A DNA stretch of 64,000 nucleotides from a virus (IMGVR_UViG_3300025718_000001:1-64000); one strand, 5' to 3'. Positions 31,093 through 42,959 are shown, counted from the stretch's first letter. The notes: generated by a model not told the origin, from the sequence alone. Numbers and translations are program-made.

Positions 31093-31414
31093 GCCCCCGC
31101 CTCGCCATCAACTCAATAACCTTCACTATAAGCGCAGTATCAGAACTCATTTCCACAATAGCCCCCTTCTCAGGATCAAACCAAATATCCAGCTCGCCAA
31201 TCTCATACTTGCACCGCATTTCGGTCTGCCATTCTTCCTTGATCGTTTCAGCCTCCGCAACAAGCCTTTTTGCTAATGCGTCTGCATCATCAAGGACTTT
31301 GAGTGCTTCGTCTAGCTTTGCCATTCCCCTTTTGAATCGTTCTGCCTCATCATCTGTGACAAGTGCCAATACTTTTTGTTCAGACATTGGGATCATCTTT
31401 TCTTTATCCGTCAT
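31085..31414 (-). CDS. hypothetical coiled-coil protein (109 aa)
   Basis: ORF in an operon. Confidence 0.55.
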   Translation of the reverse strand: MTDKEKMIPMSEQKVLALVTDDEAERFKRGMAKLDEALKVLDDADALAKRLVAEAETIKEEWQTEMRCKYEIGELDIWFDPEKGAIVEMSSDTALIVKVIELMARRGRG

Positions 31415-32222
31415 AACATCCGCATGCTTGGTCTACTACATCAATAAACATCGAAGGTTGATATTTACCATCCCCTAAAGCAACTTCTCCAGGCAAAGCC
31501 TTCGATTGTTCAATCTCCCTGCATCTCGTGTACCTAACAAACTTCATCCAAGAGAAACTTCTCCCAAGTCCCGAAATTGTTGTAAGATGAGCATGTATTT
31601 CCATCTTTAATGCCCTTTTTAACAAGTCGGGATGGTTTGCTCTTAATTCTAAAATCTCTGCCTTTTTCATGCTTGGGCAAAAGAAGCAGGATGATTTACC
31701 TGGTTGAGGAAGGTTTTCATTGGCAATTATTTGCTCACATTCATTCCTTCCAATATCCCATTCAATTAACGGATACCAGTATTCATATTTTTTGTCGTCG
31801 TATGCTTTAGCTCTCCTTTCTTCGTTTGCATCGTATCCAATAGCTTTAGTTACTTTTTCGCCCTTTTTCCATGTTTCTAAGGCTAATGGGAAATGGTTGC
31901 AATATTTATCCTGTGGCGCAGCCTTGAATTTTTGGGAACAAGTTTTAAATCCATAAGCTAGTGATGGTAACATTCTTTTTTCGAGACAATTTCTTTCAAG
32001 CGTCATTGTTTCCCCATTTAAATCAACCTTACTTACGGTAGTTATTGGAGGCATGCCATGAGAAACTAGCCAAAGGGAAAACATAATGATGTACCAATAT
32101 GTCTCAGGTCGTTCCCCCCCCGTATCAGCAAACAGGATGAGGTCGGGAATAATCCTGCGTTTCCACATTTCAATAAGCATTGCTGTCGAGTTTGTTCCTG
32201 CTCCATATGCAACGACTAGCAT
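31404..32222 (-). CDS. PAPS-reductase/PP-loop (adenine nucleotide alpha-hydrolase) family protein
   Basis: N-terminus VVAYGAGTNSTAMLIEMWKRRIIPDLILFADTGGERPETY resembles a PP-loop plus PAPS-reductase core. Confidence 0.5.
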   Translation of the reverse strand: MLVVAYGAGTNSTAMLIEMWKRRIIPDLILFADTGGERPETYWYIIMFSLWLVSHGMPPITTVSKVDLNGETMTLERNCLEKRMLPSLAYGFKTCSQKFKAAPQDKYCNHFPLALETWKKGEKVTKAIGYDANEERRAKAYDDKKYEYWYPLIEWDIGRNECEQIIANENLPQPGKSSCFFCPSMKKAEILELRANHPDLLKRALKMEIHAHLTTISGLGRSFSWMKFVRYTRCREIEQSKALPGEVALGDGKYQPSMFIDVVDQACGCYDG

Positions 32223-32560
32223 TCTTCACTCGCCAACTTAAGCTTTATAACTTCATTAACCGTTGCGATAAACTCCGAATTCGAGAATGGTCTTGCCCTA
32301 CCCATAATTCTCAGCCATGTTTCGTCATCTACTCTGCTTGCCCTAATCGCAGTACGAATCCCTCTCTCGACGCTGGGACCCATGCAATCTTTGTGCATTT
32401 TCGCTACTCCGGGGTATAATTCTTTCATCATTGCGTGGATTGATTCGGGATTTGTTTGCAAGAATAAAAGTGCGCTTTTTAAAAACTCATAACCTTTGAT
32501 ATGGGCAGGGATTTGGAGTTCGCGTAAGATGTTGTAGGTTTCAATTTTGAATTTGTTCAT
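32216..32560 (-). CDS. Spo0A C-terminal (effector/DNA-binding) domain protein without a receiver domain
   Basis: LQIPAHIKGYEFLKSAL, LYPGVAKM, SVERGIRTAIR and PFSNSEFIATVNEVIKLKL parallel Spo0A VPAHIKGYLYLREAI...SRVERAIRHAIE...PTNSEFIAMVADKLRL. Confidence 0.8.
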   Translation of the reverse strand: MNKFKIETYNILRELQIPAHIKGYEFLKSALLFLQTNPESIHAMMKELYPGVAKMHKDCMGPSVERGIRTAIRASRVDDETWLRIMGRARPFSNSEFIATVNEVIKLKLASEEC

Positions 32561-32577
32561 TCGTGTTCTCCTTTCTA

Positions 32578-33207
32578 TTATTGATTGGCTTTGAAGAAGG
32601 CGTTTGCGAATCCCGCTGGCGTAATACTGCGCCTGACTTGACGCTTATCTAATCCACAGGCAGGGTTATAAACGAAACCATCCGGTAATTCAGGCAAGTC
32701 TTCAAGTAAACGAGCATCAAATTTGATCGGGTCGTAGGATACTTGGTTCATTGCCGGCGTTTGGAAGTTGCCCCAAATATGAGTTATCTTTTTATATGGA
32801 TCACCAAACTGATGCGGGCTAAATTCCAACGGAGGTTTTCCGAGGAAGTATTTCAGAAATCCCCGGGGATTCTCTAGCGCCCAAAACTTCAAGGTTGTGA
32901 CTTTTGAGTTTGGACTGATTAGTGCATATTGTTGTTGCCAAATTATCCCTAAGCATCTCTTGACCAGCTTCATAGACCCCTCTAAATCTCTTGGATTCCT
33001 TGCGTTTGTACGAGCGAGACTAAAATGTGTGCAGGTTGGTGCTGCGAGAATGCCATATACCCCCCCTGGAGGCTCGTAGGTGAATAGATCGTGTTCTGGC
33101 AAGGTGACAAGTCTAACGTCATATCCTGCGTCCTTATATGGCTTGGACCAGGACCCTGTCCCACCGCATAAATCCAAGATGATCTTGTCGGAATTGTCCA
33201 TTACCAT
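32578..33207 (-). CDS. short C5-cytosine-methyltransferase-like protein with no obvious target-recognition domain
   Basis: Motif I ILDLCGGTGSWS, motif IV AAPTCTHFS, motif VI ALENPRG, and QFGDPYKK. Only 209 aa. Confidence 0.55.
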   Translation of the reverse strand: MVMDNSDKIILDLCGGTGSWSKPYKDAGYDVRLVTLPEHDLFTYEPPGGVYGILAAPTCTHFSLARTNARNPRDLEGSMKLVKRCLGIIWQQQYALISPNSKVTTLKFWALENPRGFLKYFLGKPPLEFSPHQFGDPYKKITHIWGNFQTPAMNQVSYDPIKFDARLLEDLPELPDGFVYNPACGLDKRQVRRSITPAGFANAFFKANQ

Positions 33208-33606
33208 CTACCCTTCATTTCTCATGATATCTTCCAAACTCCACACGCTTGTGCTAGACTGATCTTGTGATATTTCCTCTAGGTCCCTCTGCAAAGGGGC
33301 CTTTTTCATAACTAACTTTATGAGCGTTTCTTCCTCATAATTGATATAAAACAGCTCACATTCCACCCCATCCATAGGGTCTGTGTAGTTTAGCGACTTG
33401 CCAGCGTGTTCGAGATTCGGGAATAATTCGTCAAGCTCATCGCTGATCGCTTGTTCGACTCTATTCCAATCAACATCAGGCATGGAATGTATTACGATTG
33501 CCGAGGTTGAGTCGTTCAGGAGTTCGATGGTCACTCTTTGGATTATGCTTGGGTATTTAGCGAGTTCTTTGATGGCTTGGAATTGGTCTGACGTTATTTC
33601 TTTCAT
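33208..33606 (-). CDS. hypothetical protein (132 aa)
   Basis: ATG at 33606 overlaps the upstream TGA (ATGA). Confidence 0.55.
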   Translation of the reverse strand: MKEITSDQFQAIKELAKYPSIIQRVTIELLNDSTSAIVIHSMPDVDWNRVEQAISDELDELFPNLEHAGKSLNYTDPMDGVECELFYINYEEETLIKLVMKKAPLQRDLEEISQDQSSTSVWSLEDIMRNEG

Positions 33607-33836
33607 TCTCCTACTCCCCAATTACAGCAATCGAATCTATCAAACCCACTCGGCTTCTCCGTCTCCGCATCCCTCACGGCTTGTCCCTTCATTATCAATT
33701 GCCAATCATGCCGATACTGCTCCTCACGCTGATCCTCATGCTCTTTCCTCCACGCCTCAACTTCTCTGCGGAACCAATTGACTTTGAGTAGTTGCTTGCC
33801 AATTGCCTTTGCCCACTTTTTCATAAGGTTTTTCAT
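33603..33836 (-). CDS. hypothetical protein (77 aa)
   Basis: ORF in an operon. Confidence 0.55.
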   Translation of the reverse strand: MKNLMKKWAKAIGKQLLKVNWFRREVEAWRKEHEDQREEQYRHDWQLIMKGQAVRDAETEKPSGFDRFDCCNWGVGE

Positions 33837-33840
33837 CGTT

Positions 33841-34725
33841 TTAACCCTTCCTCCTTCGGTATTCTGGCCACGGTGTTGTTTTGAATGTGGCTTTATGGAT
33901 TACCCATCTCGCAAAGTCAGCCTGATATGGATCTGTTTTATCAAAAGGCATTACGAACGGGTCTACACCCAAACTCTTTAGCATTTCGACCCTGTATAAA
34001 TCCTCATCCTCAGTTGTGTCGTATCCGATCAGAACGTAGAACATCAATTTGTAAGGCAACATATACTTTGTTAGAATTCGTATACCATCCAATACAACTT
34101 GCTCTAGATCCATTGAATCCCAAGCGAATCTTAACTTTCCGCTTTTCCATAACCTAACCTTAGAGAGACGCTTCGCCTTATCGTCATCTATCAAGCGAAT
34201 ATCTAATCCTTGATTAAAATCTGTCTTAATCTTATGTTTGATAACTTGATTGACAATCAGATTAAAATGTTCCGTATCTCCCGTTAAATTGTTATCCATC
34301 AGAGTTATATGCTCTTGGCCTTGCCAAAATTGGTGTATGTCTGCTACAGGGTGCAAACGGCCCTCCTTAATGGGCACGATACAGAAAGAGCAAGAACGGT
34401 TGCATCCTCGTGTACAAAACCCTCTCGACACCTGAGAGTTGTATAAAGAGTAGTCGGGATACATTGTTTCCACTTCGTCAGGTAACTTGATCGTTAGGTC
34501 GAATCCACTTCCACCTTGAATTATTTCGCAATCTGGAAAGTATCCGTAGTTATCAGAAGCTTTAAATATTTTAGATGAGTAGATACGGTCTGGTTTGTTC
34601 TCCTTAATATCAAACATGGGGTCAAATATCTTGACAGAATCCCCAAGCCCTTTGTGGTAAGCCGACAGCTTCATAAGTACTAAGTTCGGTATCTTGGAAT
34701 CAACATCGACCAAACCTACCTTCAT
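33841..34725 (-). CDS. radical SAM enzyme
   Basis: CNRSCSFC (CX3CX2C) follows a Rossmann-like N-terminus (MKVGLVDVDSKIPNLVLMKLSAYHK). Confidence 0.6.
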   Translation of the reverse strand: MKVGLVDVDSKIPNLVLMKLSAYHKGLGDSVKIFDPMFDIKENKPDRIYSSKIFKASDNYGYFPDCEIIQGGSGFDLTIKLPDEVETMYPDYSLYNSQVSRGFCTRGCNRSCSFCIVPIKEGRLHPVADIHQFWQGQEHITLMDNNLTGDTEHFNLIVNQVIKHKIKTDFNQGLDIRLIDDDKAKRLSKVRLWKSGKLRFAWDSMDLEQVVLDGIRILTKYMLPYKLMFYVLIGYDTTEDEDLYRVEMLKSLGVDPFVMPFDKTDPYQADFARWVIHKATFKTTPWPEYRRRKG

Positions 34726-35893: not shown

Positions 35894-36001
35894 CTACTTT
35901 TTCAAAACTGAGTTGAATAATTGGACATTACGTGGGTCACTGTGCTTGTCCACAACTACCTTGATGCCGTTTGAGCTAACATAGACAACTTGCTTTTTCA
36001 T
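35894..36001 (-). CDS. 35-aa hypothetical peptide
   Basis: ATG follows GAGGAA plus 7 nt. Confidence 0.4.
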   Translation of the reverse strand: MKKQVVYVSSNGIKVVVDKHSDPRNVQLFNSVLKK

Positions 36002-36020
36002 TTAAATTTCCTCGCTTTCC

Positions 36021-36170
36021 TTAAATTAATCTGAGCCCAGTTACTTCTTGGATAAGCCCGAATGCTTGATTGATATAGGAGATTACCTCAGGCTTGGTAA
36101 GATATGGCTTACCTTTAAGGATTGGCTTGGCTAATTCATGGAACATTGTCTCAGTCATTCTGTAGATCAT
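36021..36170 (-). CDS. 49-aa hypothetical protein
   Basis: ATG is adjacent to the upstream TAA. Confidence 0.4.
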   Translation of the reverse strand: MIYRMTETMFHELAKPILKGKPYLTKPEVISYINQAFGLIQEVTGLRLI

Positions 36171-36785
36171 TTAATTCACACTCGCTTTCTTTCCAATCGC
36201 CTCATCGTAGGCCACTTGGCACTCTTCCCTAGTCCTAAATATTTTGGAACATCCTACCTCGTATTTGTATTCCTGGTCGTGCATCCAGACGTGAATCCAT
36301 TTATGAACACTATTTATTTCGATCTGCAATCTTTCTACTTTACCCTCAACAATTTCATAAACGCTGTATTGCATCTTCTGACGCTTGGAGTAAGTTCCAC
36401 ATATAGGGCATTCAGCCTCCACTTCGACTGAATCAACGATAACTTTTACCTTGTGGCTGCTTTTGCACCTATCACATTTTTGAGTTAAGAATGTTTCATG
36501 AAGGAAGAAAACTTTATCGCCAACCGCACAATCGAACCAATATTCTCTTTGGGCAATCTTCGCGGCCTCCTTAAGTTGCTTTTCGTGAGTTGACTTCGTT
36601 ACCCTAACTTCATTCCTTAGCACACTGAGTTCGATTGATTGTGCTGCGTATTCGTGGTTGATAGATTCCAGCTCTTCGACAGTTTGCTTGATTTGGTTTT
36701 TGACTTCCTCGACAATTAGGTCGTTGATCTTCAAGGAAAATTCATCCGCTAATTCGTAGTCCTCGTAAAATTCATCTTCTTCCAA
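36171..36785 (-). CDS. coiled-coil plus zinc-ribbon protein (204 aa)
   Basis: ORF with CDRC...CPIC. Confidence 0.6.
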   Translation of the reverse strand: MEEDEFYEDYELADEFSLKINDLIVEEVKNQIKQTVEELESINHEYAAQSIELSVLRNEVRVTKSTHEKQLKEAAKIAQREYWFDCAVGDKVFFLHETFLTQKCDRCKSSHKVKVIVDSVEVEAECPICGTYSKRQKMQYSVYEIVEGKVERLQIEINSVHKWIHVWMHDQEYKYEVGCSKIFRTREECQVAYDEAIGKKASVN

Positions 36786-36790
36786 TTAGC

Positions 36791-37090
36791 TCACTCACTT
36801 TCAATTAATTTTGGTTCATCTTCCCCATTCGTTACACTTCCCTCAATAGTGACCTGCAAAAACTCCAAGTCCTGCACCTGCTTTTTCAATGCCGAAATCT
36901 TTTCACCGATCATTGAGTTGAGGAAGAATGCCGAACTAGCTTTGTGGGTTAATGAATGGTTATTAAACGCCTGATGAATGAACTGACGGCTAACTCCGTA
37001 CTTTTCGGCAATATCGCTACCATTGAACCCCGTCAACCTCTTGAATTCCTTTACTAATTCCTTCTCGATTGCTTTCCCCTCCCTTGACAA
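36791..37090 (-). CDS. HTH DNA-binding protein (start uncertain; an alternative TTG is at 37036)
   Basis: HTH SDIAEKYGVSRQFIHQAF. It is the first gene after the long early leader. Confidence 0.5.
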   Translation of the reverse strand: MSREGKAIEKELVKEFKRLTGFNGSDIAEKYGVSRQFIHQAFNNHSLTHKASSAFFLNSMIGEKISALKKQVQDLEFLQVTIEGSVTNGEDEPKLIESE

Positions 37091-37131
37091 AATCTTTCTT
37101 AAATATCCTTCCCTAAGACTTTATTGAATAT

Positions 37132-37164
37132 TTGTCAATGTTTATTACGAAAACCCATTGACAA
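37132..37164. promoter_or_regulatory. operator-like inverted repeat overlapping the -35 element
   Basis: TTGTCAATG, 15 nt, CATTGACAA. Confidence 0.45.
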
Positions 37165-37186
37165 GCATCTCGTAATTGAGTATATT
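37158..37186 (+). promoter_or_regulatory. near-consensus plus-strand promoter pointing toward cro (antisense) and the cI-like gene
   Basis: TTGACA, 17-nt spacer, TATATT. Confidence 0.6.
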
Positions 37187-37192
37187 GAACTC

Positions 37193-37490
37193 AGATAAAC
37201 AATTGCACAGCAAACAGACACATTGCGTTGTGCGAGAGTTTAACTTAGCCACTGGAAATGGCTAAACGTGTTCTGTGGTAGGAACAAATTACTAGAGCGT
37301 GGTTGCTCGGCATCGACATGCTCTCGGCTTTTCGATTACTGGTAATAATCGAATGACTGGGAGTGTGTCAAATCTCATTTTGATACATTGAATAAGAATC
37401 GACTCCCTTCTATTGCACTGGTAAGATGCGATGGAAGGCTAATTGAGGTTTGGGGTGCTTCTTGAAATGTAATAAAAAAATAAATCACCC
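37193..37490 (+). ncRNA. structured non-coding RNA or leader with three CUGG(U/A)AA-loop hairpins
   Basis: Hairpins at 37245-65, 37331-53 and 37406-38. Stems differ, loops are conserved, and G.U pairs exist only on the plus strand. No SD or ORF. Confidence 0.5.
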
Positions 37491-37503
37491 ATCCGGCACT
37501 TCT

Positions 37504-37701
37504 CTAATCTTCTTTGAATAAATCGGCCATAGTGCATCCGAGAACCTTCGCGATCTTCTCAAGAATCCTAACAGTGGGCATTTTCTTAGCTCCTAGAATT
37601 TCCGATATGGTAGCCGAGGAAACCCCAGCTAACTTAGCTAACTCGAATTGCTTAAGCCCCCTTTGATCCATGTACTTCTTGACGTTCTTTGCGACAATCA
37701 A
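37504..37701 (-). CDS. Cro-like XRE-family HTH regulator
   Basis: LKQFELAKLAGVSSATISEI. TTG at 37701 follows AAGGAGGTG plus 6 nt (the track ORF extends to 37746). Confidence 0.75.
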   Translation of the reverse strand: MIVAKNVKKYMDQRGLKQFELAKLAGVSSATISEILGAKKMPTVRILEKIAKVLGCTMADLFKED

Positions 37702-37809
37702 ATTTGTCACCTCCTTGACCTTTGTTAGCACGGTAATAACCATCACCTTTCTTTTAGCTTACAGCAAACATTCGGGTAAAAAATATATGTTTGCCTGTTT
37801 ATATTTATG

Positions 37810-37838
37810 ATTATATTAGCCACGTGCTAAGAAGTCAA
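37810..37838 (-). promoter_or_regulatory. leftward early promoter
   Basis: Minus strand TTGACT, 17-nt spacer, TATAAT. Followed by the inverted repeat GCAAACAT/ATGTTTGC. Confidence 0.65.
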
Positions 37839-37953
37839 GTCCCTGCATAGACTATTTTAATCATATGGCTAAAAGGATATTTTTTACCATTACTCGAATT
37901 GTTAGATTGGGGTATAATACGTTTGTATCTGTTGATTTAAGGGGGTGAACTAA

Positions 37954-38334
37954 TTGATTTTTGGGGAGAAAGTCAAGTATGTCCGGGAATTACGAAATCT
38001 AACACAGGCCGACCTTTCTGCTAAGTGTTCCCTAAGTATTCCTTTTATATCAGAAATTGAAACAGGGAAAAAGAGGCCCTCCACTAGGGCACTAGAGAGG
38101 ATAGCGAAGGCGTTAAATACTAATACTTGGTTCTTCCAAGATGATGCCGCTATTACCTTTAAGGAGATAAATAAACTATCCGATTATGAACCACCGGAAG
38201 GTATAGTTGAATTCTTTTCCCAAAAGGAAAGTTTGCCTTACGCAATATTAGCCAGAGAGTTAAGCGATGAAGGAATAGACCCCGAATTCCTTCGCGATCT
38301 ACTTGACTCAATCAGAAAAATGAAAGCAAAGTAA
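37954..38334 (+). CDS. CI-like XRE-family repressor
   Basis: LTQADLSAKCSLSIPFISEIETGKKRPS plus a C-terminal domain. TTG start follows AAGGGGGTG. Divergent from cro. Confidence 0.75.
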   Translation: MIFGEKVKYVRELRNLTQADLSAKCSLSIPFISEIETGKKRPSTRALERIAKALNTNTWFFQDDAAITFKEINKLSDYEPPEGIVEFFSQKESLPYAILARELSDEGIDPEFLRDLLDSIRKMKAK

Positions 38335-38350
38335 ACGCATGTATTATCTT

Positions 38351-38396
38351 TATAACCGACAATTCATGATAGAATTAGTCGGTTATAGTTATTTTT
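38351..38396 (+). terminator. terminator after the repressor gene
   Basis: TATAACCGAC...GTCGGTTATA followed by GTTATTTTT. Confidence 0.6.
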
Positions 38397-38568
38397 AATT
38401 GTAATTAGTCGAACTTAATATAATTTGTACTTAAATTTACAACTTATGGCATACGATTATAAAGGAGTCTAAATATACGTTCGCGAAGAAGTATAGGCAC
38501 GAAATAGTAGCACTAATGTTTCACTAAGTAGAACTGGTATTCTAAATAGCTGAAAGGAAGTATCAGGC

Positions 38569-38793
38569 ATGATAGTAGAAAAGGACCTAAAAGGGGTTTT
38601 TAAATGGATTGTAGTTGATGAAAATTCGGTTATTGTTGATCCTGTGTATATGGGGGAGTATCAGAATTCAATAAAAGGCAGTAGGGTACCATTATTCATG
38701 TGCCCTCACAAGATCATTATGTTAGTGGCCTGTATATCTGCCGCCATCTCATTACCCGTCCTCCATAGCCTATGCTCTTTGCATAAAAGCTGA
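38569..38793 (+). CDS. hypothetical protein (74 aa) with a hydrophobic C-terminus
   Basis: ORF with SD AAAGGAAG. Weak support. Confidence 0.35.
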   Translation: MIVEKDLKGVFKWIVVDENSVIVDPVYMGEYQNSIKGSRVPLFMCPHKIIMLVACISAAISLPVLHSLCSLHKS

Positions 38794-38998
38794 TAATTAA
38801 AAAGGAAAATACAATAACCCTGTCGAATTAAACTAAAAAAGGATATGGAAAAACCTCTTAGAATTCCCACCGGCAAGTGATATCCTAAGAGGTTCCAATA
38901 AGACAGGAAACATTCCTGTGTTTTATGCTGTTGATTAACATTATAAAGCACATTAGAACTTCTGTCCATTCCTTAATAGAATTGACGGGGGTTTTATT

Positions 38999-39388
38999 TT
39001 GTTCAGATTACCACGCCCACAGAAAAACTATACAGAAGTTCCTAACATTGTTTTTGATGAGCTAATACCCAACATATCCAATATGGCTGCGCTCAAATGT
39101 TACCTAATCTTAATTCGTAAGACATGGGGATGGGAAAAGATAGGTGACTATTTAGCTATGCCCCAATTAACCAAGCTCACGAAACTTTCAAGGCCCAGCG
39201 TAACAGCCGGGATGCGCTGGCTAGATAGCAGGGGTTATATTTGGATTGCAAAGGCAGGTGAACCTGGTCAAGAGAAGATTATGTATTTCCTTTGCACCGA
39301 GGAAACTGAACACCTTGAACGGTCCGTAAAAGAAGGGCTATTGAGTGCGGATACCCTCTATAAAATGATGATGAAAGAGCGAGAATAG
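38999..39388 (+). CDS. lambda-O-like replication initiator, N-terminal wHTH domain
   Basis: YTEVPNIVFDELI...LKCYLILIRKTWGWEKIGDYLAMPQLTKLTKLSRPSVTAGMRWLDSRGYI fits the Phage_rep_O pattern. Iterons follow. Confidence 0.7.
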   Translation: MFRLPRPQKNYTEVPNIVFDELIPNISNMAALKCYLILIRKTWGWEKIGDYLAMPQLTKLTKLSRPSVTAGMRWLDSRGYIWIAKAGEPGQEKIMYFLCTEETEHLERSVKEGLLSADTLYKMMMKERE

Positions 39389-41565: not shown

Positions 41566-41603
41566 CGAATAGAAGTCCTAACGTTGAGTTGAAAGGAGAA
41601 AGA

Positions 41604-42959
41604 ATGAAAAAGCACAGCGACTTCTCTTCTGAAATTAAAGAGCAAATTATGAGAGCTATATACCGTGGACCAGATAACGAAATACCCTCTGCCATCTATG
41701 ATGCAATTTCTATCCTGTATGCTAGTTGCCCCCTTAAGCCATTCATTTTCAAGAAAACTCTTCTCTCCCCCAAGGAAAAACTAAAGCCTCAGCTACCCGA
41801 AAACCTCAATCCGCAAGAAATCCTCCACTGGATAATGCACAGACCAAAACTAAAGCAGACATGGTGCTTAGTGATTCACCTGCCGCCTGGAATAGACTTC
41901 ACTGAGTTCAAAAGTAGAGAACCCTACTTCTCCACAGCGATTGGCAACGGTTCATGCGAAATAGAGCGCAATGGAAAAGTTGTATTAATGACCATATCTA
42001 ATATATTACTCAATAAGTCATATCCTTTTGAGTTCGACCCATACCCATATCTAAAGAAAATGAGCTTGCCTATCCTCCTTGGCTATAGTGCAAGTGGTCC
42101 TATTATTGTAGATATGGCAGAGCTAGTGACTATTTTAACAGGAGGACTCAGGGGATCGGGCAAGTCAGTTTTATTCCACGGAGCTATATATAGTCTCCTA
42201 AGGCTTAACACCGACCTACTCAATCCTAAAGTAATTGTCTGTATCATCGACCCAAAGATTAAGGAATTCAAATACTTTGAGGAATATGGCGCAATATGGG
42301 TTCATGACATGGATGAAATACGGCAACTACTCGAAATGTTAGATGAAGAGAACGAACGCAGACAGGACTTAATCGGTGGCAAGGCTAACAACATCATTGA
42401 ATATCATGCGCTTGGAAAGAAGTTGCCTTTTGTTGTTGTGGTAGCAGATGAAGTAACTGACTTAGGCGAAGATAAGAATTGCAGGAAGTTAATGATTAAG
42501 GCAGTGCGCAAGTATCGTAGTCAAGGAATTTATGTATGGGCAGCTACGCAAAGGCCTTCCGCAAAAGCATGGGGAAGTTCAAACGAATTCAGCGAATTCA
42601 AGAGCCAGTTTGAATCAAGGGTATGCTTCAGGACCGCCGACCCTATTAACAGTCAAATGATATTGGATTCCAACCGTGCTAGTTCCCTTCCGAAGATCCC
42701 CGGTCGAGCCATCTATAAATTCAGCGAAGAGACTGAAATACAAGTTCCTTATTTTCCATCTAAGGCAAAGCATCCTAAACTATTTCACGAACTTATGGAC
42801 CAATTACCCAAAGTTGCACTTCCCTATCACAACATCGAAGGTGAGGTATATGATTATGAACCCAATTACCCACTCCAAAGGACGCAAAAGAGATCAGCAG
42901 GTCCTAGCGCATCTCGAAGCTTGCGGGGTCTTATCTCAGGAGCAAATACATTTGCTTGA
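41604..42959 (+). CDS. FtsK/SpoIIIE-family DNA translocase ATPase
   Basis: Walker A GGLRGSGKS, Walker B FVVVVADEV, and ATQRPS. ATG at 41604 follows AAAGGAGAA. Confidence 0.8.
   Translation: MKKHSDFSSEIKEQIMRAIYRGPDNEIPSAIYDAISILYASCPLKPFIFKKTLLSPKEKLKPQLPENLNPQEILHWIMHRPKLKQTWCLVIHLPPGIDFTEFKSREPYFSTAIGNGSCEIERNGKVVLMTISNILLNKSYPFEFDPYPYLKKMSLPILLGYSASGPIIVDMAELVTILTGGLRGSGKSVLFHGAIYSLLRLNTDLLNPKVIVCIIDPKIKEFKYFEEYGAIWVHDMDEIRQLLEMLDEENERRQDLIGGKANNIIEYHALGKKLPFVVVVADEVTDLGEDKNCRKLMIKAVRKYRSQGIYVWAATQRPSAKAWGSSNEFSEFKSQFESRVCFRTADPINSQMILDSNRASSLPKIPGRAIYKFSEETEIQVPYFPSKAKHPKLFHELMDQLPKVALPYHNIEGEVYDYEPNYPLQRTQKRSAGPSASRSLRGLISGANTFA

Follow-up and report, generated by a model that had tools for sequence, protein, structure and literature searches.

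The window analysed here is the whole 64,000-nt stretch of a viral contig (IMGVR_UViG_3300025718_000001, positions 1 to 64,000), whose gene content (terminase, portal, capsid, DnaB helicase, and tail genes) makes it look like a complete phage genome. Between its cro-like gene and the next early gene, a 99-aa HTH gene (gene99), there is a gap of 413 nt (37091-37503) without any ORF of 40 aa or more; the earlier note on this DNA had likewise seen a gap with no ORF there. The ORFs inside the gap are at most 37 aa long, unconserved, and not membrane-like, and no conserved small ORF or type I toxin was found in it. On the plus strand, the gap holds a clean candidate for a noncoding RNA gene, which would extend from 37193 to ca. 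37440-37465 and appears to belong to a new RNA family. The features of the region are collected in Table 1.

Table 1. Features of the switch region and of the candidate RNA gene (window coordinates).
Feature	Position	Strand	Remarks
gene99	36791-37090	-	99-aa HTH gene, weak HTH match; divergent from the RNA gene; opens the next early operon
RNA promoter	37158-37186	+	-35 TTGACA (37158-63), 17-nt spacer, -10 TATATT (37181-86); 11/12 match
P1 domain	37194-37244	+	outer helix 37194-201/37237-44; inner helix P1a 37204-10/37228-34
P2	37245-37265	+	hairpin 1 of the earlier note; TTAGCCA-CTGGAAA-TGGCTAA; stem covaries, loop unconserved
P3	37270-37285	+	GUUCU/AGGAAC, loop GUGGUA; absent from the earlier note
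P4	37295-37308	+	invariant GAGC/GCUC stem; loop GUGGUU in the window
P5	37315-37369	+	22-bp helix; tip 37331-53 TTCGATTA-CTGGTAA-TAATCGAA, loop CUGGUAA 37339-45
P6	37406-37438	+	hairpin 3 of the earlier note; 12-bp stem 37406-17/37427-38, two G.U pairs
3' tail to cro stop codon	37439-37503	+	weak P7-like hairpin (GAGG...CUUC) and A-rich stretch
cro-like HTH gene	37504-37746	-	convergent with the RNA
P_R-like promoter of cro	37838-37810	-	faces the RNA promoter
cI-like HTH repressor gene	37954-38334	+	same orientation as the RNA, 760 nt downstream of the RNA start

Several other features of the surroundings deserve mention. A palindrome (TTAGC-CACGT-GCTAA, 37816-37830, plus strand) lies inside the spacer of the P_R-like promoter and is likely to be a repressor operator; related half-sites are found at 37725-32 and 37857-72. 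The gene gene99 has a strong AAGGAGG ribosome site on the minus strand (37063-37090), and the aligned codon 8 nt later is ATC in the window and ATG, ATA, ATC, or ACG among relatives (L002-L018; relatives are designated by locus number). Gene callers pick other starts upstream, none of them conserved, and the gene may rely on non-AUG initiation or have a start that is not yet resolved. In the early region, a cluster of PAPS-reductase-like, DNA-methyltransferase-like, and radical-SAM genes (31404-34725, minus strand) may be a DNA modification module. The lysogeny arm codes for a protein with a RepO-like N-terminal domain (38999-39388, plus strand) and an FtsK/SpoIIIE-like ATPase (41589-42959, plus strand), with a TnpB/Cas12f-like gene (Pfam PF07282 and PF01385; 40393-41514, minus strand) between them. 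No integrase was found among the window ORFs scanned, and a plasmid-like prophage is therefore conceivable; one relative is located near the end of a 272-kb contig, suggesting integration.

Relatives were collected by scanning viral contigs with gene99 as a protein anchor, which gave 17 loci with upstream regions 67-73% identical to the window gap, and by DNA-pattern scans, two of viral contigs and one of metagenomes. Once duplicates and chance matches had been removed, the final set was made up of 21 distinct versions (the window and 20 others), all of them from one ecosystem, the Rifle aquifer/groundwater metagenomes (JGI, ENA, and Logan). Among the matches dismissed as due to chance were L044, L046, and L069, as well as L041, a Dehalococcoidia MAG that was the sole pattern match in the GTDB genomes. 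The region had no blastn match in INPHARED phages or PLSDB plasmids, and gene99 had no tblastn match in phages. Searches against Rfam 15 (cmscan with permissive filters) gave no hit that overlaps the RNA, either in the window from 36000 to 39000 (E up to 10) or in five relatives (E up to 1). The RNA is thus not explained by any known family. A search of the whole window with the covariance model described below found one copy only. The host is probably a Gram-positive bacterium (Bacillota), as indicated by the TG-extended sigma-A promoters, the AAGGAGG ribosome sites, an XhlA-amidase lysis cassette, a distant structural similarity to Bacillus megaterium phages, and a gene99 homologue, 61% identical, in a MAG labelled Desulfitobacterium.

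The RNA gene is flanked on one side by cro, in some loci together with an HNH gene, and on the other by the next early operon; its orientation is opposite to that of the early operon in every locus. A cI-like ORF on the same strand lies 0.67-1.55 kb downstream in all 18 loci tested. gene99 adjoins the RNA in every complete locus except L082, where another small gene occupies its place and the RNA is present, while distant homologues of gene99 exist without the RNA. Downstream of gene99, the relatives carry variable genes, often Rha-, Bro-, or Ant-like. HNH_3 endonuclease genes lie beside the RNA gene in L005 (2167-2892), L002 (2182-2903), and L051 (3037-3863). In the L051 type, they are located between cro and the RNA; in L002 and L005, the HNH gene splits P1-P5 from a second P5-like CUGGUAA hairpin and P6. 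Homing endonucleases seem to come and go at this conserved RNA gene. Given that the RNA is separable from gene99 and that HNH genes lie nearby, it behaves as a separate module, one of its own within a mosaic region.

The near-consensus promoter that had been described on the plus strand can be read directly at its coordinates, with a predicted RNA start at ca. 37193-94, and its position is fixed in all 21 versions (-35 TTGNNA, 17- to 18-nt spacer, -10 TANNNT). The -35 variants are TTGACA, TTGCCA, or TTGTAA, all the promoters score 9 to 11 out of 12, and in 20 of the 21 versions the -10 is extended by TG at -15/-14. The distance between the -10 and a conserved CAG preceding P1 is exactly 5 nt in all 21, with a spacer sequence that varies freely. 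From its sequence, this looks like a strong sigma-A-type promoter that would work independently of an activator. An inverted repeat over the -35, TTGTCAATG (37132-40)/CATTGACAA (37156-64), had also been pointed out and is indeed present in the window. It was rejected as an operator, being unconserved in the relatives and formed merely by two back-to-back TTGACA hexamers. Direct repeats of the TTG type (CTATTG) around the -35 are found in a subset of versions only. Since the promoter seems strong and has no conserved operator-like repeat, the RNA would probably be made both in the lysogen and early in infection.

The other end of the RNA is more variable. In eight versions, there is a bidirectional intrinsic terminator (GCUAGG-N8-CCUAGC followed by a U tract) ca. 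45 nt after P6, with a hairpin that reads GCUAGG-(N)UUGGUAU-CCUAGC and a loop (G/U)UUGGUAU. L004 has a different intrinsic terminator, and at least 9 of the 21 versions have one before cro. Where the terminator is present, the RNA length is ca. 300 nt, the size that the earlier note had proposed. Most relatives have a U-rich tract after P6, which together with P6 may act as a partial terminator; because of this tract, a product of ca. 250 nt is also likely. In the window, neither a good U tract nor any other canonical plus-strand terminator was found before cI. Given that there is no clear terminator there, a longer transcript may begin with the window RNA, and read-through into cro is possible in the window's phage.

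These two ends bear directly on the proposal, made in the earlier note, of a P_RE-like geometry for a transcript through cro toward cI. In full, an establishment transcript of this kind would have the structured RNA as its 5' leader, run antisense through cro, and then express cI. The geometry stands, since in all 18 loci checked the promoter, placed between cro and the next early gene, is directed toward cro and cI. The lack of a canonical plus-strand terminator in the window would also fit, and so would the likeness of the RNA tail to the cI translation start (15 of 17 positions, noticed post hoc). However, a promoter that is near consensus and TG-extended has no apparent dependence on an activator, the TTG-type repeats are restricted to a subset of versions, and at least 9 of the 21 versions terminate right after the RNA and before cro. 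Besides, such a role needs no conserved 250-nt fold. We regard this reading as quite unlikely overall, and it is disfavoured for the relatives with terminators.

The terminators also have to be considered for a replication primer or control RNA of a plasmid-like prophage origin, comparable to RNA II/RNA I of ColE1 or to the mycobacteriophage prophages. A precedent exists in the RNA-based origins of extrachromosomal mycobacteriophage prophages (PMC7157519). The RepO-like and FtsK/SpoIIIE-like genes in the lysogeny arm and the lack of an integrase among the scanned ORFs would agree with this, but in many versions the RNA runs straight into a terminator, the relative in the 272-kb contig suggests integration, and no origin features were identified. 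This makes a replication function very improbable.

The plus-strand RNA of 37190-37500 folds better than dinucleotide shuffles with z = -3.9, versus -2.8 for its complement. RNAalifold, applied to a plain MAFFT alignment, predicted P1, P3, P4, and P5, with 16 pairs changed on both sides, and independent minimum-energy folds of the 21 versions each recovered P1 (with P1a), P2, P3, P4, P5, and P6. The sequences were then realigned to a covariance model of 243 positions and 70 pairs in six helices. On this alignment, which is fitted to the model and therefore leans toward the structure, 92.5% of the cells form standard pairs, versus 34-42% when the 3' partners are slid by one to three columns. 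Double-sided changes affect 33 of the 70 pairs, and all of 500 shuffles stayed below the observed values, although this significance is inflated by the 21 versions being related and coming from a single ecosystem. The most convincing helices are P2 (100% paired, 4 of 6 pairs changed on both sides) and P5 (96.5% paired, 14 of 22 pairs changed on both sides). Covariation of the stems, which had been suggested for three hairpins in the window, is thus seen on the covariance-model alignment of the 21 versions.

The pairs also tell the strand. There are 237 predicted G.U pairs versus 27 A.C, pairing drops from 92.5% on the plus strand to 78% on the complement, and two G.U pairs of P5 that are invariant in all 21 versions become A.C on the complement. 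The excess of G.U over A.C argues for a structured RNA encoded by the plus strand of the window, in agreement with what the earlier note had deduced from the G.U pairs of its third hairpin. The alternative is that the minus strand or the DNA itself is the active form, as an antitermination RNA similar to nut or put or as single-stranded DNA hairpins that serve as a single-strand origin. In lambdoid phages, nutR and putR sit directly downstream of cro; the region studied here has the same position, and its minus strand folds better than shuffled sequences (z = -2.8). Yet the loss of pairing on the complement, the two invariant G.U pairs that become A.C, and the promoter and terminator that frame a plus-strand unit leave this alternative scarcely credible. 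As for a nut/put element on the sense strand of the early transcript, it was rejected, as the covariation and the G.U versus A.C count place the structure on the opposite strand.

Along the RNA, the part closest to the 5' end carries a conserved AGCAAA(C/U)A (37209-16), partly in a loop, which reads AGCAAACA in 20 of the 21 versions and AGCAAATA in L043. The P1a pairing CGUA/UACG is replaced by CACA/UGUG in the window and L018. The three hairpins that had been listed in the earlier note are all found where it placed them, but two of its details change in the full structure: its second hairpin (37331-53) is merely the tip of the 22-bp P5 helix, and a fourth ACTGG (37356-60), although present, is no loop but belongs to the 3' strand of P5. 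The same helix has an invariant triplet, U.G/C-G/G.U, formed by 37324-26 with 37358-60 (model pairs 140-176, 141-175, and 142-174). The loop of P6 (37418-26) reads CTGGTAAGA in the DNA and CUGGUAAGA in the RNA.

Several of the hairpins share a motif at the tip. TGGTA occurs three times in 250 nt of the window, each time in a hairpin loop (shuffle p of ca. 0.003). Among the versions, the P5 loop is YUGGUAA in 17 of 21 and the P6 loop UGGUAAG in 16 of 19. The P3 loop contains UGGU in 18 of 21, the P4 loop is GUGGUU in 7 of 21, and some versions have an extra CUGGUAA in the linker between P5 and P6. The loop of P2, on the other hand, is CUGGAAA in 8 of 21 and CUUCAA, UUGAAG, or CUGAAA in the others. 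The shared CUGG(U/A)AA loop of the earlier note is therefore right for P5 and P6 and does not hold for its first hairpin, while P3, the terminator hairpin, and sometimes P4 have to be added to the loops with UGGU(A). In the homologous phages, the pairing of the stems and the P5 and P6 loops are mostly kept and the P2 loop is not. Each RNA has 3 to 6 copies of UGGU and almost no ACCA. In L004, L015, and L082, the base after UGGU is C and not A in both the P5 and P6 loops; this joint change may reflect shared ancestry, with the carriers being one lineage.

Conserved loops on covarying stems are to be expected if the loops are recognised by their sequence, and the pattern fits repeated binding sites for one partner. 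We infer that the UGGUA tips are repeated recognition sites for a single trans-acting partner, most likely an RNA-binding protein, from either host or phage, that forms dimers or oligomers; an RNA ending in or containing ACCA is less likely. Our preferred reading, put forward tentatively and with something less than even confidence, is that this noncoding RNA of a new family, with its 3 to 6 UGGUA(A) tips, is a multivalent decoy, sponge, or scaffold that biases the switch or protects the prophage. The RNA would be transcribed from its own strong promoter, and the tips, placed on three to six freely evolving stems, would hold several copies of the partner. Holding it would then bias the lysis-lysogeny decision or protect the prophage. 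A more specific version, in which the RNA is a decoy for a host factor, so that lysis-lysogeny is biased or a defence disarmed, seems doubtful. The factor could be an uncharacterised protein that binds RNA, an RNase or toxin with sequence specificity, or tRNAs captured by their ACCA 3' ends, as the loops of T-box and RNase P do. To our knowledge, UGGUA is not the motif of any RNA-binding protein, and a literature search for a factor that binds it gave nothing useful.

The search for partners and targets nearby was mostly negative. In five loci, with up to 14 kb of surrounding DNA searched, sites complementary to the loops (UUACCA, or GACCA in the variant lineage) had no consistent placement, and in the window their counts were at background level. 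No conserved sites complementary to AGCAAA(C/U)A or AGCAAACA were found in the flanking phage DNA. gene99 was considered as the protein that binds the loops and rejected, as the UGGUC variant does not track the gene99 sequence, the RNA is present without gene99 in L082, and distant gene99 homologues lack the RNA. The UGGUC variant did not track the cro alleles either. The AlphaFold model of gene99 has low confidence (pLDDT of 68.6), and with this weak model a Foldseek search of the PDB for a relationship to lambda CII gave nothing significant (best E = 2.9, CII E = 7.6).

Within the window, there are three matches between the RNA and the cI/cro region. A second copy of ACAGCAAACA (37207-16) stands at 37761-70, so that 10 nt of the RNA are perfectly complementary to the 5' leader of cro. 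The arms of the P2 stem (37245-65) recur at 37816-23 and 37865-73, where they form an inverted repeat located between the promoters P_R and cI. The RNA tail (37440-56) is like the cI ribosome site and first codons (37948-64) at 15 of 17 positions, with an empirical p of ca. 0.008 for a likeness noticed post hoc. These three matches are found in the window only, and none of them recurs in the relatives.

These results weigh on the possibility of a trans-acting base-pairing sRNA, the AGCAAA(C/U)A segment or UGGUAA loops of which would pair with host or phage mRNAs and control their translation or stability. AGCAAA(C/U)A is kept in all 21 versions, and the 10-nt complementarity to the cro leader would offer a target in the window. 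However, the latter is missing from every other locus, and the UUACCA or GACCA sites flanking the RNA are not consistently placed, so that we consider such an sRNA improbable.

The main rival is cis-antisense action combined with transcriptional interference, in which the plus-strand promoter fires against the transcription from P_R, which has to pass through this region on its way to gene99 and later early genes. The loops, which are of the U-turn type (YUNR: CUGG, UUGG), would start kissing with the exactly complementary early transcript, and RNase III cleavage or premature termination would follow, giving a second layer of immunity. Antisense RNAs with several hairpins, among them CopA, RNA I, and pIP501 RNAIII, typically have YUNR loops. 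The layout would suit such a mechanism: P_R and the RNA promoter stand head-on, separated by ca. 610 bp, the orientation is against the early operon in every locus, and in the window and in the L011-type relatives there is no strong terminator between cro and the RNA, so that the transcripts would overlap. On the other hand, a cis-antisense RNA pairs whatever its loops are, and the same motif on three to six loops is not needed. Also, the bidirectional terminator of eight relatives would stop the cro transcripts before they reach the RNA gene, gene99 has a candidate promoter of its own (TTGCAA-17 nt-TATGTT) conserved in most relatives, and the G.U excess indicates that selection preserves the fold of the plus-strand RNA. 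Interference thus explains the position and the orientation but not the repeated motif, and we consider it rather unlikely, though a possibility to be taken seriously.

Among known systems, those close in layout include the lambda OOP RNA and the convergent-promoter switches of 186 and P2, which likewise have their own early-region promoter directed against P_R-type transcription, near the cro/cII position. OOP, however, is a 77-nt RNA that consists of one terminator hairpin and overlaps cII at the 3' end of that gene, whereas the RNA described here has 250-300 nt and six conserved helices, and many relatives have a terminator before cro, with none that is canonical in the window or the L011 type. 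The lambda P_RE promoter is also located between cro and the next early gene, which in both cases codes for a small HTH protein (the cII position), and is directed toward cI. In contrast to the near-consensus, TG-extended promoter found here, often with a terminator after the RNA, P_RE combines a poor -35 with a requirement for CII bound at TTGC-N6-TTGC. Antisense RNAs of type I toxin-antitoxin systems (RatA, SR4 type) have a small hydrophobic toxin as the convergent gene and overlap its ORF, whereas here the convergent genes are cro (HTH) or HNH.

RNAs are also part of the immunity circuits of other phages, i.e., c4 of P1/P7, the CI RNA of P4, and sar of P22, and in c4 and CI the specificity is set by loop sequences. 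The context is similar in that the neighbouring operon of several relatives encodes antirepressor-like proteins of the Rha or Ant type. Nevertheless, c4, CI, and sar are 69-77 nt long, and c4 and CI arise by processing of the transcript of the very operon under their control, where they pair with repeated complementary sites; the RNA studied here has its own conserved promoter, diverges from the neighbouring operon, and has no consistently placed complementary sites in the five loci searched. The 3'-NCCA of tRNAs is bound by the UGGN bulge of T-box antiterminators and by the GGU of the L15 loop of RNase P RNA. UGGU(A) is likewise exposed here, in a loop or bulge, and ACCA-3' would be its pairing partner, which we take as a lead only, since the elements of T-box and RNase P act inside large RNAs that hold the tRNA body and no likeness to Stem I or to the RNase P core is found here.

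Phage switches are textbook protein circuits, and the RNAs known at them (OOP, sar, c4, and P4 CI) are short antisense molecules. The RNA presented here is much larger, is backed by covariation, and is found at this same strategic point in phages of uncultivated, probably Gram-positive bacteria from groundwater. Titration of a host factor, if it takes place, would give the control of lysogeny or anti-defence a further layer based on an RNA decoy, and UGGUA would be a defined motif with which to search for the partner; capture of a host factor, if true, would mean that phages have a further class of RNA and that switches can be controlled in a new way. Whatever its function, the candidate family already has an alignment, a structure, and a covariance model. 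As to how such a decoy could act, the protein-sponge RNAs of the CsrB/RsmZ type come to mind. The motif differs, UGGUA(A) here versus A(N)GGA, bound by CsrA/RsmA, in theirs; GGA appears in the RNA described here only in the variable P2 loop (8 of 21 versions) and in the paired 3' strand of P5. There is no similarity in sequence or in Rfam, and the RNA studied here is encoded by a phage beside the cI/cro switch. Both, however, are stand-alone RNAs of a few hundred nucleotides with many hairpins, in which one apical-loop motif is repeated on stems that differ from each other. The CsrB/RsmZ sponges would therefore provide, as regards the mode of action and not family membership, the best analogy for this RNA.
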